Source: a virus
Taxonomy: Duplodnaviria; Heunggongvirae; Uroviricota; Caudoviricetes
Reading direction: 5' to 3' (one strand)
Length of the DNA stretch: 64,000 bases
Virus record (IMG/VR): IMGVR_UViG_3300045988_138358
Each line of letters begins with the position of its first letter. Positions within the stretch are counted from its first letter, which is position 1. The notes under the pieces are model-generated. The model was not told the origin of the DNA and made no database searches. It saw only the letters and a program-made list of their open reading frames with translations. Below, piece by piece: positions 9,322 to 59,502 of this stretch. The translations under genes were made by a program, and so were the position numbers.

Positions 9322-9426
9322 TTATTCCTCCGAAAAGCAGGTATCTGTTCATTTTCCAGAGGATAGGGAGTGTGTGATTTGCGATGGGGACTGAATGAAG
9401 ATCTTTGCCGGTCGAGAAGCGATTAT

Positions 9427-16246: not shown

Positions 16247-17944
16247 TCACTTTTTTTCGTTAACCTTGCCTGTCAGCATGTCGATAGCACCTTCTTTGGC
16301 GCGAGTCAGACGCAGGCGGGTGAAGTAGTTTTCACCGTTGCGAGGATGTACTTCGTTGATGGCACTGCCCCAGAGGGTGGTACGGTTAACGAGAGACGGA
16401 TTGGTTTCGTGCACGTAAGGGATTGCTGGGACTGCATCACCAGCAATCAGACCGGCTTTACCGATGCCTTCGCCACGCCCATAGAAGAAGATGTCATCCA
16501 GCCCGAAGTCATATCCCTGTGCCTGGAATTGCTCACAGACAGGTTGCGGCACTTCGTAAATACGAATCGTGCCAAACAGGGTGCCGATGTACTGTACATA
16601 CGGCGACTGAACGTAACCTGGTGCGATCTGGAAGTGCTGTGGAGGCAGAGAGCGCAGGAAGTTCGCGGCGTCACCACCAGCAAAGCCGCCACGAATACCC
16701 GTTGTCAGGGTACGATTTGCCATTTCTTGAGACAGAGCGTTTACTACGTGACGCAGGAGGCCGACCCAGGACTCATAGTTTTGAGCTTCCGGCAGAGCCA
16801 CATCAAATTCACGACCATAAACGGTATGGAATACCAGGGTGCGCAGACGCATGATGTCGGTTTCATGGGAGATCCAGTTACGCATCGCGGAGAACTGAAG
16901 TGCCGCTAATTCAAGGCCGTGCTCACGGCTTAAATCGGATGCGGACATTACCGTGTGTTCGGAAGCAATTACGTACTGGGACGGACGAACTTCGTACTTA
17001 CGCATAGCCTGGTTGATCACAGGAATCAGGCTTGGATTGCGCTCGATGTTAATTTCGACCTGAACAGCAATTTCAGTACCTTCTGGCGGAGCCTGGGTAA
17101 ATGTAATGTCAATGACACCAGTGTCATAGGCAACTTTGGCAGTCGCTGAGAAAGCATTACCTTTGCTGTCTTTAGCATTGAAATAAAGGTTGCCATCGCC
17201 GTCGTCAACTTTGGACGGTTTGCGGTTGATCAGCAGTTTGTTATAACCAGCGCGAAGCGGGCAGGATTGTCCCTCAAAATTTTGGATGTCGAACTGGAAG
17301 GTTTTGGTGCTGCCATCCCCTTTAGTGGAAAGGGTATACAGGCGCTTCATTTGAGAATAAACACCAGCTGACTGCATATTCAGTTCGTCACCTTGTTTGA
17401 AGGTGCCGAATTTTGTGCCTGCTACGTTGACCAGTTCATAAATATTTGACTCGTCACGATCACAAGGAACAAAAGTACAGGCATCACTGGTAGCAGCGCC
17501 CAGAGAGGCAGGCAGTATTAGTGCAGCATATTGAGCAACTTTCATTACGCCGTCAGAGCTACGCATTGATTGCGCGACAGACTCAAACATTGCCTTACCC
17601 GTGCCTTCATGGGTATCACTGGCACATTCAGTCATCAGGCGTTCAAGAGCCATGTGTGCGTTCGCCAGGATGTCACTTGCCGGGTAATGACCATGTTGAC
17701 GTTTATACTCATGCAGAGACATAGCCCACCCACCAGTGATCTGACGAGCGACCTCTGGATTTACGCCTTCAAACATAGGCACTTTCTGGATTGCTTTATC
17801 CAGGTTTTCCATCATTACTGCCTGGTCAGCAATCATGTTGCCTGCTGCATCGGTGGTCGGATCGACGGTCATAGCCATGACGCTTGCCGCCCGATTCATA
17901 ATCTCGCGCTCGCGATCACGAGCTGGCTGAATGTTTTTATTCAC
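16247..17944 (-). CDS. major capsid protein (candidate)
   Basis: ORF track 565 aa; first gene of a minus-strand late operon upstream of the sheath; assignment by size and position. Confidence 0.4.
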   Translation of the reverse strand: MNKNIQPARDREREIMNRAASVMAMTVDPTTDAAGNMIADQAVMMENLDKAIQKVPMFEGVNPEVARQITGGWAMSLHEYKRQHGHYPASDILANAHMALERLMTECASDTHEGTGKAMFESVAQSMRSSDGVMKVAQYAALILPASLGAATSDACTFVPCDRDESNIYELVNVAGTKFGTFKQGDELNMQSAGVYSQMKRLYTLSTKGDGSTKTFQFDIQNFEGQSCPLRAGYNKLLINRKPSKVDDGDGNLYFNAKDSKGNAFSATAKVAYDTGVIDITFTQAPPEGTEIAVQVEINIERNPSLIPVINQAMRKYEVRPSQYVIASEHTVMSASDLSREHGLELAALQFSAMRNWISHETDIMRLRTLVFHTVYGREFDVALPEAQNYESWVGLLRHVVNALSQEMANRTLTTGIRGGFAGGDAANFLRSLPPQHFQIAPGYVQSPYVQYIGTLFGTIRIYEVPQPVCEQFQAQGYDFGLDDIFFYGRGEGIGKAGLIAGDAVPAIPYVHETNPSLVNRTTLWGSAINEVHPRNGENYFTRLRLTRAKEGAIDMLTGKVNEKK

Positions 17945-18056
17945 GGTTAAGCCCTAAATTCGGGCGCGGCGTGAAGGTTCTTTTGACGGGCTAACAATAC
18001 CTACTTTGTGATTTAGTCAATAGGTTTAGTAAAATAAAATCTATTAACACGCATGT

Positions 18057-28597: not shown

Positions 28598-29487
28598 TCG
28601 ATCACTCCGTTTTGAGTCGTATCAAAATTCCTGGCAGGTATGCAGTAGTAAAGCGAACCAACATGCTGTGTGCCGTAGCTAAAAATACGGTGCACGTACC
28701 ACCAGCGGCGGGCTACGCCGTTTACCATCTCTTCATTCCATTCAAGAATTGATCCGACGGGGACGTTATTTGCTGCAATACGCAGAATCAGAACATCATC
28801 GGTTAAGCCATCCTGCTCACCGTCTGCGTCAATCGCATGGAAAGAGTCACGCCCGTCCGGGTTATCCAGCACATAAACGATTTCAGGTTCCTGGTAAGTC
28901 AGTTCGCGCTGGTTGTTATCCAGTTCAGTGAATGACTCTTCTCCTGTTTCGTCGCTGACTACCCCATATGTGCCAACATCTGGTCGATATAAGAGAGCCT
29001 GAAACGCGTCTGGGCTGGATTCAATAATCAGCATCCAGTCTGCGCGGATTTGGTCGTTAAAGGCTTTATGCCCGTTATAGCGTGCTTTTAGCTGTGGAGT
29101 TGGTTCTCTGCCAGCCAGGGAAGGTGGAAGTATGGCTATATCTGATTCGGCAGCATCCGGAGTAAGGCCAGCGTTGCTATCAGCAAAATTATCATGGCTA
29201 TCAGCTTTGGCGGCGGGTTGCTCTTCCAGAATGCTGAATGAATCCGAACCGGTATTGCCATGTTCCGGCGCACCTCCTGCATTCGCTTCAATCGGCGCTG
29301 GCGTTTCTCTCTGCGTGCTGTCATGTTCTGACTCCTTACTTGCCAGGTTTGCATCGTCAGCAAACCATTCGTCAAAACGGCCCATAAGCATCCTCAAAGG
29401 TCGATCTGTCAGGTATCGAAAGGAAGATTTTCGGGAGATTGTGATTTTGGATGAAGGAGGGGGAATCCATAAAATGCACTTGCGCAC
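28594..29487 (-). CDS. hypothetical acidic protein
   Basis: ORF track 297 aa; true start may be the ATG near 29385 with GAGG upstream. Confidence 0.3.
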   Translation of the reverse strand: MRKCILWIPPPSSKITISRKSSFRYLTDRPLRMLMGRFDEWFADDANLASKESEHDSTQRETPAPIEANAGGAPEHGNTGSDSFSILEEQPAAKADSHDNFADSNAGLTPDAAESDIAILPPSLAGREPTPQLKARYNGHKAFNDQIRADWMLIIESSPDAFQALLYRPDVGTYGVVSDETGEESFTELDNNQRELTYQEPEIVYVLDNPDGRDSFHAIDADGEQDGLTDDVLILRIAANNVPVGSILEWNEEMVNGVARRWWYVHRIFSYGTQHVGSLYYCIPARNFDTTQNGVIE

Positions 29488-32815: not shown

Positions 32816-33008
32816 AACAAAGCCTCTCAGTCATAACCTGGGGGAAACTGTATGCAGGGTGTGAAATGCGAGAAACAGACAGGCCACCAGTTCAGGGGGA
32901 TGTGGTTCATAAATCCCCTCACTGGTGACAAGTGACTTTCATTAATCTTTATGCGGGGGCCAGCTTCATTTGCTGGCATTAGATTAAAAATTAAACGGAG
33001 TGAATAAC

Positions 33009-33143
33009 ATGGATGTTATCTTCGAATTATTAATGCTAATTGATCTGTTTATGAACGCTTCATTGACCACTCAAATACTGGCGTCAATATTTTTGTTACT
33101 CTTCTACCTGGTATTGAGGGAGTTAACAAAGCTACTAATGTGA
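33009..33143 (+). CDS. small hydrophobic protein, 44 aa
   Basis: Hand-found; ATG 33009 with GGAG ~10 nt upstream; stop abuts the stop of the convergent minus gene. Confidence 0.3.
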   Translation: MDVIFELLMLIDLFMNASLTTQILASIFLLLFYLVLRELTKLLM

Positions 33144-33797
33144 TCAAAGTATCACGGTATCTTCATCAACTTCTTTCCCAGTCAGTGTCTTTGACTGGGA
33201 GGTGCCTGCTTTAACTTTTTCATGCCCAATAATGGACAGGAACGAAGCGAGTATGCCTGTTTTTTGCTCTTTCTCGACTGTACCGGTCATCTGCTCTACG
33301 TAATCCGCACTGGCTACATTGTGGTATACGGTCGCGTAGCAACACAGGATCATCAAAATATGCTCCGGCCTGATATCCTGCCAGTTCACCCGGTAGACTT
33401 CTTCTCCGTTACCGTTGTATTCGGTGTCAACGATGGAGTCAGGGATTTCGAAAGCACCTTTGTTATTTTGCGGCAGGGATAATAGCTTCTGGAGTTTTAA
33501 CTCTCTGTATCTTTCCATCCCGACGATGATTGCTGCTCTGCCATCGGCATGACGGGTCTTGAGAGTCACCTGGCTTGCTCCGGTGCCAGCGGAGATCGTT
33601 GGCGTAATTTCGTCTACCAGTACCTTAAATTTGCTTTTCCGCAGGGCTGCTATAGCTGGAGGAATTTTTTGCTTTTGCTCCAATGCTGACGCGGGAAGGG
33701 GTTTTACTTCGTTAATAATGAGAGCACCGTCTTTCAGTATTGCAGTGAGCATTTGAGGCTTGCTGGTGGTCAGGCTGAATATTGCGATCTTTTCCAT
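33144..33797 (-). CDS. hypothetical protein
   Basis: ORF track 33144-33839 starts at GTG inside a terminator hairpin; ATG at 33797 with SD GGAGGAAGG is the likelier start. Confidence 0.4.
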   Translation of the reverse strand: MEKIAIFSLTTSKPQMLTAILKDGALIINEVKPLPASALEQKQKIPPAIAALRKSKFKVLVDEITPTISAGTGASQVTLKTRHADGRAAIIVGMERYRELKLQKLLSLPQNNKGAFEIPDSIVDTEYNGNGEEVYRVNWQDIRPEHILMILCCYATVYHNVASADYVEQMTGTVEKEQKTGILASFLSIIGHEKVKAGTSQSKTLTGKEVDEDTVIL

Positions 33798-33824
33798 TGT
33801 CCTTCCTCCACGGATGACGGATAC

Positions 33825-33849
33825 AAAAAAAGGCCGCACATGGCGGCCT
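33825..33849 (-). terminator. leader terminator/attenuator-like hairpin just upstream of the RBS of the 33797 gene
   Basis: Minus strand AGGCCGC-loop-GCGGCCT followed by six or seven U. Confidence 0.5.
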
Positions 33850-34065
33850 GCTTTGGCGTTATGACTCCCTACCGCGCTTCGGCTGAAAGTTAATCGTCAA
33901 AAGAACCTTCAACGGGAGCCGTTAGCGCGATGGATTATGTGCAGTTTGTGATTTCCAAAATAGTGTCAACCACTTTTGGTGGATTTTATTTTTTAACCGA
34001 AATTTGGCCTAAATCATGTTTATGTAGTTAATTGTTTTTATAACATAAAACTTCATTTTGTTTGC

Positions 34066-34689
34066 ATGAAGGATGGTGTAGTGAAGTTAAGGGCTTTAGG
34101 GGCCGCGCTCGCGGCTATGTTGGGATGCGTATCTGCTAATACTGCCAATGCAACTGCGTTACCTGCACAATTCAGGGCAGGGCAGCAGGTTATGAATAAC
34201 GCTGGTGGAGATCATTCACAAGCGGCCATTATGGACTTTTGCAAGAGGGAGGGCATTCCATTACGGCCTGTTGGAACTCAGTTTATTGGTAAAACTGACT
34301 TTTGCGTTTTTGCATATACAGCATATCTGACGGACAAAGCTATAACAAAAACAGGTTATTCAACCAAAGATACTCTTTCCAGATTAAGTCAGGGATGGCA
34401 GCAATTCGAAGTGTATCGCCAGCAAGGATTAGGTGAGTTATTGCAACCTCTTTTTATGCTTGCGTTGGTGCCAGAGGGGCAGCAATTTTTGGTTAAAAAG
34501 GGAATGCTTCGCCAAAGTGATATTGCCGGGTTCGATAGCATGATGGCTTATGAGCGCAAACTAACCGAGCAGCGAAATAAAAAACCATCTGCTTCATGTG
34601 TGCAAAGTAAAACAGCAGAATACAGTGCAGTAGCCGGGCCTTTAGCCAAACAAATGGCAGAGCAATGGTGTAAAAAATACGGGCAATAA
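34066..34689 (+). CDS. predicted secreted protein
   Basis: ORF track 207 aa; N-terminal signal peptide. Confidence 0.4.
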   Translation: MKDGVVKLRALGAALAAMLGCVSANTANATALPAQFRAGQQVMNNAGGDHSQAAIMDFCKREGIPLRPVGTQFIGKTDFCVFAYTAYLTDKAITKTGYSTKDTLSRLSQGWQQFEVYRQQGLGELLQPLFMLALVPEGQQFLVKKGMLRQSDIAGFDSMMAYERKLTEQRNKKPSASCVQSKTAEYSAVAGPLAKQMAEQWCKKYGQ

Positions 34690-58307: not shown

Positions 58308-58383
58308 TGGTGGCCCCTACCGGACTTGAACCGGTGACCGTGCGATTATGAGTCGCCAGCTCTAACCACTGAGCTAAAGGGCC
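58308..58383 (-). tRNA. tRNA with CAU anticodon (Ile2 lysidine-type or Met)
   Basis: Hand-folded cloverleaf, 7-bp acceptor stem, T-loop TTCAAGT, CCA encoded; close to E. coli ileX as I recall it. Confidence 0.75.
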
Positions 58384-58392
58384 AGATTACTG

Positions 58393-58521
58393 TTAATTCC
58401 GCTTACGCTTTTTGCCAGAACCGCGTAAGGCTTTTGCCGCTTGCTCGATCCCATATGCAACCACCAGCAGAAATAAAAATGTCCAACCAGGGTTCTTATC
58501 GGCAAAGGCCCAAAAATCCAT
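58393..58521 (-). CDS. small hydrophobic protein, 42 aa
   Basis: Hand-found; one hydrophobic helix and basic tail; ends 10 nt before the CAU tRNA. Confidence 0.25.
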   Translation of the reverse strand: MDFWAFADKNPGWTFLFLLVVAYGIEQAAKALRGSGKKRKRN

Positions 58522-58572
58522 CACTTGCAGCTACCTTTTAAGACAAAACGCCATTGCTGTTAGATTGCGGTG

Positions 58573-58587
58573 CCTGGTGCCTCCAGG
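58573..58587. ncRNA. short hairpin CCTGG-TGCCT-CCAGG
   Basis: Second of three hairpins with identical loop and covarying stems. Confidence 0.3.
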
Positions 58588-58795
58588 TGACGTTAACCAG
58601 TTAACAATTAACGCCGGGATGTTTGATTTAACCACTAAGGAGGATTGTTTTAACTGTTCCGCGTGCGCTTAGCCGCATTCACCGCAATGGTAAGAGCACT
58701 TGGCTGGCTGGGCGGCGATGACGCCTGTACGCATTTGGTGATCCGGTTCTGCTTCCGGCATTCGCTTAATTAGCCAAATACTCTTAACGTTGCGC

Positions 58796-58882
58796 TGGCG
58801 GAGAGTAATGGAATCGAACCATCATCGCTTGCGCAATGGGACGGTTTTCAAGACCGCTTGAGCACCATGCTCCCTACTCTCC
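58796..58882 (-). tRNA. tRNA-Ser-like (UGA anticodon, long variable arm), divergent
   Basis: Hand-folded: 7-bp acceptor stem, anticodon loop CTTGAAA, long variable arm, T-loop TTCGATT, discriminator G, CCA encoded; D-arm unusual. Confidence 0.55.
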
Positions 58883-59028
58883 GGCCGTTGTGGTGGCCGG
58901 TACTGAATCTCCGGCATACGGTGCAGCCAATTAGGACTACGGACGATCACCGCTCGCGAAAGGGAAGATTTGCGGCCGCATTTCCCTAACATCCAAGAAA
59001 GCTATCGCATCAGTCTGCGAATCCACCA

Positions 59029-59118
59029 CAACGTTGAGAACACTGGTTGTCACGCTGCAACGCAACATTTATTCGTAGATTGGGATATGACCCCGTTACG
59101 TCAGTGTTCTCAACGTTG
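59029..59118. ncRNA. long hairpin: perfect 17-bp inverted repeats around a 56-nt interior
   Basis: Arms at 59029-59045 and 59102-59118 are exact reverse complements. Confidence 0.4.
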
Positions 59119-59265
59119 TAGTACCGGTTACGGTTCCGGCCAGGCCTCTTCCTCAACGGGGTATTCTCCATACGGACTACCGTTTATTGGTCGTTCCTGC
59201 GGTTTATGTTGTGAAGCCAGATGCTTATCTTCTGGTTGCTTCAAAGAGCTGCACTTCATCACAAC

Positions 59266-59339
59266 GGTAAGGGTACTTCGTAGGGATTCGAACCCTCTGC
59301 CAAGCACGGCGATCTCCGACGTCGCAAAATACCCTTACC
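59266..59339 (-). ncRNA. tRNA-like element: 10-bp closing stem around a canonical T-arm, no canonical cloverleaf
   Basis: Closing stem GGTAAGGGTA/TACCCTTACC with internal T-arm-like hairpin; I could not fold it as a standard tRNA. Confidence 0.35.
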
Positions 59340-59347
59340 TGTTGTGT

Positions 59348-59423
59348 TGGTGCCGATTAACGGACTCGAACCGCTGACATCCTGCTTACAAGGCAGGCGC
59401 TCTACCAACTGAGCTAAACCGGC
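59348..59423 (-). tRNA. tRNA-Thr (UGU)
   Basis: Hand-folded cloverleaf; anticodon loop CTTGTAA; T-loop TTCGAGT; CCA encoded. Confidence 0.75.
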
Positions 59424-59425
59424 AT

Positions 59426-59502
59426 TGGCGATGGTGGGTGGATTCGAACCACCGACCGACAGCTTAGAAGGCTGCTGCTCTATCCTACTGAGCTACACCA
59501 TC
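59426..59502 (-). tRNA. tRNA-Arg (UCU)
   Basis: Hand-folded cloverleaf; perfect 7-bp acceptor stem; anticodon loop CTTCTAA; 2 nt from tRNA-Thr. Confidence 0.75.

Follow-up and report, generated by a model that had tools for sequence, protein, structure and literature searches.

The stretch of DNA analyzed here (the window; all 64,000 nucleotides of virus record IMGVR_UViG_3300045988_138358) belongs to the P1 family of phage-plasmids and is D6-like, and the element in question is the 5' leader of its mat gene, which encodes a 217-aa homologue of the maturation control protein. mat occupies 33144..33797 on the minus strand, with an ATG start codon at 33797 and a Shine-Dalgarno (SD) sequence, GGAGGAAGG, that is read at 33801..33809 (minus). 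Its product is 98% identical to Mat of phage D6 and 33% identical to Mat of P1. Across mat and its upstream region the window and D6 share 96.6% identity, and about 100 plasmids of E. coli, Salmonella and Shigella match the window with identities of up to 99.9%. The gene located 5' of mat is divergent (plus strand, 34066-34689), which leaves no upstream gene that a terminator in the mat leader could serve.

A first-pass annotation of this locus had placed a strong hairpin followed by a U-run on the minus strand about 15 nt in front of the SD and start codon of mat, between a possible promoter and the ribosome-binding site. We confirmed this arrangement. The hairpin AGGCCGC-CAUGU-GCGGCCU at 33831..33849 (minus) has 7 pairs, 6 of them G-C, and a 5-nt loop, folds alone at -13.1 kcal/mol and runs into 7 U, counting the last stem base, that are read at 33825..33831 (minus); the gap between the end of the U-run and the SD of mat is 15 nt. 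A GC-rich hairpin directly followed by a U tract is what characterizes an intrinsic terminator, and 33849-33825 is predicted to be one. A terminator-type structure thus separates mat from its promoter, which turned out to be of the late type. The position of the terminator is kept in every Mat clade examined, its stem is 100% paired across 17 distinct homologues with one stem pair changing on both sides, and at this place P1-type phages carry another terminator, different from this one but equivalent to it. The Pantoea clade has an interrupted U tract (UUUCGCCUUUU).

The TTGACA box that had been proposed as a candidate -35 is present at 33970..33965 (minus) and is conserved in alignments of the region upstream of mat, but it does not qualify as a working -35. 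It lies 25 nt from CATAAT, the sole -10-like hexamer there, its distance to the -10 varies between 17 and 25 nt in the alignments, and a sigma-70 scan calls no promoter there; a sigma-70 promoter starting from TTGACA was therefore rejected, as was a sigma-54 promoter, for which the GG-to-GC spacing was wrong on inspection. The earlier remark that the -10 is poorly spaced holds in that 25 nt makes no proper sigma-70 promoter, but the same CATAAT (33934..33939, minus) serves as the -10 of a late promoter. It follows, after 3 nt, the upstream box AAATCACAAACT (33943..33954, minus), which is the D6-type equivalent of the P1 '-22 region', and its position would set the transcription start of the mat leader near 33928-33926. 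With at most one mismatch allowed, this 12-mer occurs 5 times in the window compared with 0.78 expected. All five copies (1984-1995, 9369-9380, 18003-18014, 29436-29447 and 33943-33954; all minus) fit the motif AAATCACAAaCT-N3-(-10 hexamer), with the hexamer after exactly 3 nt and having A as its second and T as its sixth base, and they stand only in front of structural operons, which are, respectively, a 148-aa open reading frame (ORF), the tail operon, the capsid gene, a tail/baseplate operon and mat. The P1 annotation lists a late promoter, LPmat, at the homologous place before mat and another, LP23, before the capsid gene, and in other clades a clade-specific box, e.g. ACAAAGTACAAAC, stands ahead of both the mat leader and the capsid gene. 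A -10 and an upstream box at fixed spacing, the lack of a -35 and recurrence before late operons are the marks of P1-family late promoters, and judged from its sequence the promoter of the mat leader is of this (Lpa-type) class. Late genes of the P1 family are activated by Lpa at many promoters. The motif AAATCACAAaCT-N3-(-10 hexamer) is a usable late-promoter consensus for D6-type elements. Among the five late promoters of the window, only that of mat has a long, structured leader with a terminator behind it.

The leader RNA predicted to extend from this promoter to the U-run is about 104 nt long (33825..33928, minus) and consists of a three-way junction, a linker and the terminator; its minimum free energy and centroid folds both equal the structure supported by covariation (-37.6 kcal/mol). 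In the outer junction helix, H1, GGCUCCC (33914..33920, minus) pairs with GGGAGUC (33863..33869, minus). H2 is a hairpin (UGAAGGUU / AACUUUCA; 33884..33911, minus) with a 12-nt loop, CUUUUGACGAUU, and H3 (GCCG-AAGCG-CGGU; 33871..33883, minus) contains an invariant GCGCGG (33877..33872). A 13-nt A-rich linker joins the junction to the terminator. In the D6 clade an alternative 5' helix, CGCGCU/AGCGCG, is possible, with one compensatory change.

An alignment of divergent plasmids revealed that conservation over the ~110 nt between the -10 and the U-run far exceeds that of the flanks and also exceeds that of the first mat codons, and the most distant BLAST match, from Enterobacter, is restricted to the leader block. 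Mat loci were gathered from genomes and viral contigs. The D6-like clade, two Klebsiella/Citrobacter-type groups, L088, Pantoea and P1/P7/JK004, with Mat proteins 33-99% identical to that of the window, share one layout: a promoter of the late type, a -10 that lies 141-157 nt from the start codon, and a GC-rich hairpin with a U tract shortly before the SD. The same leader architecture is found in the P1, JK004, Klebsiella/Citrobacter and Pantoea clades, in which Mat is only 33-50% identical. A covariance model (R1), built on the D6 clade with a hand-set structure, scores 139 bits on window positions 33824..33933 and recovers every non-P1 clade at full length with E values of 1e-8 to 1e-11. Across 17 distinct leaders, 92% of cells are paired compared with 38-54% when the partners are slid, and seven pairs change on both sides. 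H1 is 94% paired and has 2 such pairs, H2 is 87% paired and has 3, and H3 is 85% paired. The covariation score of the leader is 0.243 versus 0.131 in shuffles, and 0 of 500 shuffles reached it. MAFFT combined with RNAalifold across all non-P1 clades recovered the terminator only, the 5' half being misaligned. Applied to seven P1-type variants, RNAalifold arrives at the same architecture, in which a 9-bp outer helix with 3 compensatory pairs encloses two inner hairpins and a linker leads to an 8-bp terminator. A full leader, with the site GAGGUUCUUUUGGCG and a U7 terminator, is also seen in a metagenome contig (L418, 180-412; Mat 41% identity).

The first-pass annotation had read the hairpin as part of a transcription attenuator or of a short leader RNA. 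The comparative data support a leader RNA but not a classical attenuator, which has an antiterminator or a leader peptide. Folding of nascent leaders of 12 representatives revealed no conserved pairing with the terminator 5' arm that would form an antiterminator, and no conserved leader ORF was found, the only ATG/GTG falling in the variable terminator loop. With its own predicted promoter and terminator, a length of ~104 nt and no conserved ORF, the RNA has the makeup of a trans-acting small RNA (sRNA). A search of the whole window with Rfam 15 returned three tRNAs and nothing else; the three tRNA genes lie at 58311-59502 (minus). A local scan of the window leader, ranked by E value, gave isrK as its best match, with 14.7 bits against a gathering threshold of 50 and covering the terminator only, and neither the P1 leader nor the region upstream of P1 gene 23 had a match in Rfam. 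The C4 model (RF01695; gathering threshold 45 bits) matched neither the window leader nor the P1 leader even at E <= 10, and as a positive control the same library finds P1 c4 (68.8 bits) and its a1b1 element. The Rfam scan detected no C4 antisense RNA elsewhere in the window, and any D6-like immunity RNA must be divergent. We found no description of the mat-leader RNA in the full texts searched, which did not include older key papers on P1 and D6, so that an earlier description is possible.

Searching the window for the complement of the H2 loop uncovered a putative partner in the capsid mRNA. The 5' strand and loop of H2 (site 1, UGAAGGUUCUUUUGACG; 33895..33911, minus), the putative antisense determinant, can form 17 perfect base pairs with 17988..17972, CGUCAAAAGAACCUUCA, on the same (minus) strand some 16 kb away. 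The major capsid protein gene (homologue of P1 gene 23, with a GUG start) occupies 16247..17944 (minus) and is preceded by a late-promoter box, AAATCACAAAGT (18003..18014, minus), and a -10, TATTGT (17994..17999, minus). The complementary stretch starts 6 nt after this -10, at about +1, and is therefore the very 5' end of the capsid late mRNA. It is the only leader complement of at least 12 nt in the 64 kb, where 0.0007 are expected; leader complements of 10-11 nt occur at chance frequency, and the other three late promoters of the window are without a complementary motif. In D6-type and P1-type RNAs alike the pairing segment takes up the 5' strand of the first inner hairpin and the 5' half of its loop. 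In non-P1 clades a second contact may join leader GCGCGG with CCGCGC of the capsid 5' untranslated region (UTR); its counterpart in the P1 clade would be GGCAC with GUGCC. The CCGCGC of the window (17964..17969, minus) is a weak candidate site that overlaps the 5' strand of the SD hairpin, GCCC-N7-GGGC. An anti-SD at the 5' end of P1 gene 23 mRNA (CUCUUCC versus GGAAGAG) was also considered and dropped, as the start site is likely downstream of it.

Capsid loci were then fetched from viral contigs and paired with mat-leader loci by contig name. Every clade has an equivalent complementarity at the same two places, and the two sequences change together. The leader and capsid segments are UGAAGGUUCUUUUGACG and CGUCAAAAGAACCUUCA in D6-like elements (17-18 bp), GAGGUUUUUUGGCG and CGCCAAAAAACCUC in the L088 type (14 bp), UGAUGGAAUUUUUGAC and GUCAAAAAUUCCCUCG in Pantoea (16 bp), (UGA)GGGUACUUUUGAC and GUCAAAAGUAAC... 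in Klebsiella/Citrobacter (13-16 bp), UGGAUCCCUUUUC and GAAAAGGGAUUCA in P1 (13 bp), and UGGAACUCUUUUCA and UGAAAAGAGUUCCG in the L258 type (14 bp). The 44 genome-matched pairs represent 12 distinct duplexes of 13-18 bp, which together hold 168 Watson-Crick pairs, 14 G.U pairs and 5 mismatches. Double changes are compensated, for example from CUUUUGAC/GUCAAAAG to UUUUUGGC/GCCAAAAA and from CCCUUUUC/GAAAAGGG to CUCUUUUCA/UGAAAAGAG. Single substitutions within clades yield G.U rather than A.C in 7 of 7 cases, whereas by chance half of the transitions would do so, indicating selection on an RNA duplex rather than on a shared DNA site. A matrix of RNAduplex energies separates cognate and same-clade combinations (-20 to -31 kcal/mol) from distant cross-clade ones (-7 to -17), and compared with shuffled UTRs the cognate duplexes have z values of -3.1 to -5.9 in 13 of 13 pairs. 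JK004 served as an out-of-sample test. Its leader loop, GGGACUCUUUUCA, predicted UGAAAAGAGUCCC after the capsid late promoter, and the sequence observed there was UGAAAAGAGUUCC, giving 12 Watson-Crick pairs and one G.U. The leader thus has a conserved complementarity that co-varies with its putative target mRNA, as is expected of a base-pairing sRNA.

The capsid 5' UTRs of L358, L359 and L361-L364 (~340-400), which represent more distant clades of Xenorhabdus, Yersinia, Rosenbergiella and Plesiomonas types, have a GUC(A/G)A(A/G)AAG-type start right after the promoter, e.g. CGUCGAAAAGCUGACUCCC, and the capsid UTR of the Xenorhabdus/Yersinia type reads CGUCGAAAAGCUGAC. The data suggest that the system may extend to Xenorhabdus/Yersinia-type relatives, and the leader sequence expected for L361 from its capsid UTR would be GUCAGCUUUUCGACG, G.U allowed. 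An exact 16-mer scan in this clade returned the capsid UTR itself only, the contig DNA examined holding no mat gene. A pattern search for the capsid partner of the L418 clade gave 59 matches, all unrelated.

In D6-like clades, the capsid UTR (window 17942-17971, minus) contains a conserved hairpin, GCCC-N6-8-GGGC, that holds the SD and is nested in a long-range helix formed by the 3' end of target site 1 and the GUG start region. The capsid start codon is GUG or UUG in all non-P1 clades, and the capsid UTR of the P1 clade folds differently. Given that the SD and the GUG start lie in a nested two-helix structure overlapping the target sites, pairing with the leader could open the ribosome-binding region. 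Alternatively, pairing could shield the 5' end of the capsid mRNA from decay. That the pairing protects or opens the capsid mRNA and thereby boosts capsid synthesis, rather than repressing it, is the consequence we favor, with low confidence. A preprint (10.64898/2025.12.28.696737) describes smaller heads and a lower burst of P1vir in a delta-hfq host, an observation that bears only circumstantially on pairing in vivo and on Hfq/ProQ dependence.

The AlphaFold model of Mat (mean predicted local distance difference test score 79) has an RNase H-like fold, and no Pfam domain was found in the protein. Its best matches in PDB are nuclease domains of large terminases, followed by RuvC-type and poxvirus-type resolvases (Foldseek E value 5e-4, TM-score 0.44-0.5). 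The model suggests that Mat may be a DNA-maturation nuclease rather than a 'control' protein. As a lead, a nuclease needed at low dose would suit expression by leaky read-through. The leader also bears on how mat of P1 is annotated. In the GenBank record of P1 (L038 / NC_005856, 2716-2829) the mat coding sequence starts at 2716, inside the leader RNA, so that the leader stretch is annotated as the Mat N-terminus, and neither a terminator nor an RNA is listed. The conserved start is the ATG at 2827, which gives a protein of 213 aa, as in PGAP-annotated plasmids, and among P1-like contigs the long reading frame is disrupted by a polymorphic 1-nt indel (GGGGCGCT versus GGGGGCGCT). The P1 mat gene model is corrected accordingly. 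In P1 the leader RNA would run from about 2703 to about 2815.

Taking these results together, we consider it probable, though far from certain, that the element is an antisense RNA of the P1 family which is made late, derives from a leader and acts on the capsid mRNA, with mat expressed by read-through. The late promoter would transcribe a structured RNA of ~100 nt that is the 5' leader of mat. Most transcripts would stop at the terminator and free a small RNA composed of H1, H2, H3, the A-rich linker, the terminator hairpin and the U tail, and a minority would read through into mat mRNA. The freed leader, or the same sequence as the 5' UTR of the read-through mRNA, would then pair through the H2 5' strand and loop with the first 13-18 nt of the capsid late mRNA, possibly with GCGCGG-CCGCGC as a second contact. 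What the sequences show is the anatomy of the element, the late-promoter motif, a fold that is conserved and covaries, and a complementarity that co-varies across clades; the start site, an efficient but leaky termination, pairing in cells and its consequence are inferred. A further-reaching proposal, to which we give somewhat less than even chances, is that this late riboregulator must pair with the capsid mRNA to stabilise or unlock it, and that production of much regulator together with little of the nuclease-like Mat couples head synthesis to DNA maturation.

Several observations weigh against the proposed capsid-directed RNA. Start site, 3' end and efficiency of termination of the leader are all predictions, and the structure counts were taken on an alignment fitted to the covariance model. 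The P1-clade leader is undetected by the D6-clade model and is regarded as homologous by position and architecture only; in this clade the uninterrupted Watson-Crick complement is just 10 nt (13 bp with one G.U). As the clades, about six lineages, are phage-plasmids related to one another, independent co-variation events are few. The second contact, of 5-7 nt, is not significant alone. When the target sites were blocked in silico, the start codon opened in 6 of 8 clades, weakly and inconsistently. Both RNAs come from late promoters, and the logic of a co-expressed regulator is not obvious. Finally, one Mat lineage, Pantoea sp. CCBC3-3-1 / P0180, is without the junction leader. In this lineage (~35% identity; L416 = NZ_CP034366.1 90-310, and L417, a Logan contig) mat is preceded by a short leader that starts from a sigma-70-like promoter and contains no more than a short hairpin.

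Control in the opposite direction is supported equally by this complementarity and co-variation. The capsid mRNA would then act as the regulator through its 5' end, whose pairing with H2 would remodel the nascent leader and alter either termination or the translation of mat, confining Mat production to the time when capsid mRNA is plentiful. The terminator does sit between the junction and mat, and a nuclease-like Mat might need tight conditional expression. However, the paired segment lies 60 nt 5' of the terminator, the strands freed by pairing show no conserved alternative pairing to either terminator arm, and the trans RNA would have to reach the nascent leader during the transcription of ~60 nt. 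We regard this direction of control as unlikely. Distinctly unlikely, in our estimate, is a leader that acts purely in cis as an attenuator or antitermination element resembling lambda pR'-tR' or HK022 put, in which the fold or a phage protein allows read-through and the capsid match has no function. The order of promoter, structured leader, strong terminator and gene is what such a leader would show, and a passage of PMC10695390 voices the suspicion that antiterminators are encoded by P1 and cites Windle et al. 1988 for a proposal that the neighbouring ref gene is under attenuator-antiterminator control. A purely cis-acting leader leaves unexplained, however, the unique 17-nt complement, the 12 co-varying duplex types and the wobble-only substitutions, and no antiterminator fold, leader peptide or Rfam match was found for the leader.

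It is very improbable that the two stretches are inverted copies of a DNA site for a late protein, one at capsid +1..+17 and one in the DNA of the mat leader. Both are located just 3' of late promoters, and a protein-binding site would co-vary with its protein too. Yet the seven within-clade substitutions and JK004 produce G.U, which would be mismatched as DNA, the two stretches are invariably antisense to each other on the transcribed strands, the leader copy is part of a covarying hairpin, and the motif is missing from the remaining three late promoters. Terminator-like hairpins are common (6 found within 3 kb compared with 3.4 expected, so that a single one is not rare), but that a chance hairpin in ordinary terminator-like sequence happens to meet a chance complement has next to no probability, since position, fold and complementarity are kept where Mat is only 33-50% identical.

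On the far side of the promoter, the similarity to D6 ends ~50 nt into the divergent gene (window ~34117 onward, plus), and the simB-like gene of D6 is replaced in the window by a gene for a 207-aa protein with a signal-peptide-like N-terminus (34066-34689). Downstream of mat, a near-identical plasmid, L127 (CP125036.1, 18749-19957), carries an insertion sequence with a transposase between mat and the homologues of genes 26/25, at the place of the window gap 32816-33143. This insertion indicates that the baseplate genes are independent of read-through from the mat-leader promoter.

For seventy years P1 has served as a model phage and as a genetic tool, and its late control has been described purely as promoter activation by Lpa. 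If the capsid-directed leader RNA is real, virion morphogenesis would gain a post-transcriptional layer and P1 a second antisense system next to c4, and the RNA would offer a clean, genetically tractable case of a 5'-leader-derived sRNA in a virus. The relatives of P1 in which it might operate are widespread phage-plasmids of Enterobacterales, many of them carrying resistance genes.

Among known systems, the late leader of lambda resembles the mat leader in its layout. At lambda pR'-tR', a strong terminator 100-200 nt after the late promoter and ahead of the late genes makes the short '6S RNA' the default product, and Q brings about antitermination. In the P1 family, on the other hand, late genes are switched on by Lpa at many promoters, a terminator follows only one of the five late promoters of the window, and no Q-like factor or binding element was identified there. 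Lambda 6S RNA is not known to have an antisense target. Trans-acting sRNAs do arise by premature termination of leaders in bacteria, as in rnTrpL from the trp attenuator and SreA/SreB from S-adenosylmethionine (SAM) riboswitches of Listeria. As would be the case for mat, one promoter yields both a short terminated leader that pairs in trans and, by read-through, the downstream gene. The mat leader differs from these in that it is without a leader peptide or a known ligand-sensing fold, is viral and late, and has the mRNA of a structural protein as its putative target.

Regarding the effect on the target, the closest parallels are the 'anti-antisense' activation of rpoS by DsrA and RprA and the protection of the cfa 5' end by RydC through pairing in the 5' UTR. 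As in these cases, the pairing predicted here is with the 5' end of the target, a long way 5' of the SD; in the D6-like clades the SD and start codon of the capsid mRNA lie in an inhibitory nested structure with 5' strands that overlap the pairing sites. Unlike in these cases, the opening predicted in silico is weak and inconsistent, and the fold of the P1-clade UTR is different.

C4 RNA of P1 and P7, with CI RNA of P4 (RF01695), is likewise close in organization. c4 is matured by RNase P, whereas the mat-leader RNA is predicted to end at an intrinsic terminator. The two also differ in that the mat leader has a late promoter and not a C1-controlled early one, sits 5' of mat with its complement in the capsid mRNA rather than in the icd/ant transcript, and matches the C4 model in neither sequence nor structure. 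Like C4 and CI RNA, however, it is encoded by a phage-plasmid and would be cut or terminated from the leader of an operon. In both, a compact outer stem encloses two hairpins, and sequence exposed in a hairpin has, as its known or predicted pairing partner, one or two short stretches close to where the target mRNA begins, as the a' and b' loops do with a2 and b2 in the P1 annotation of c4.

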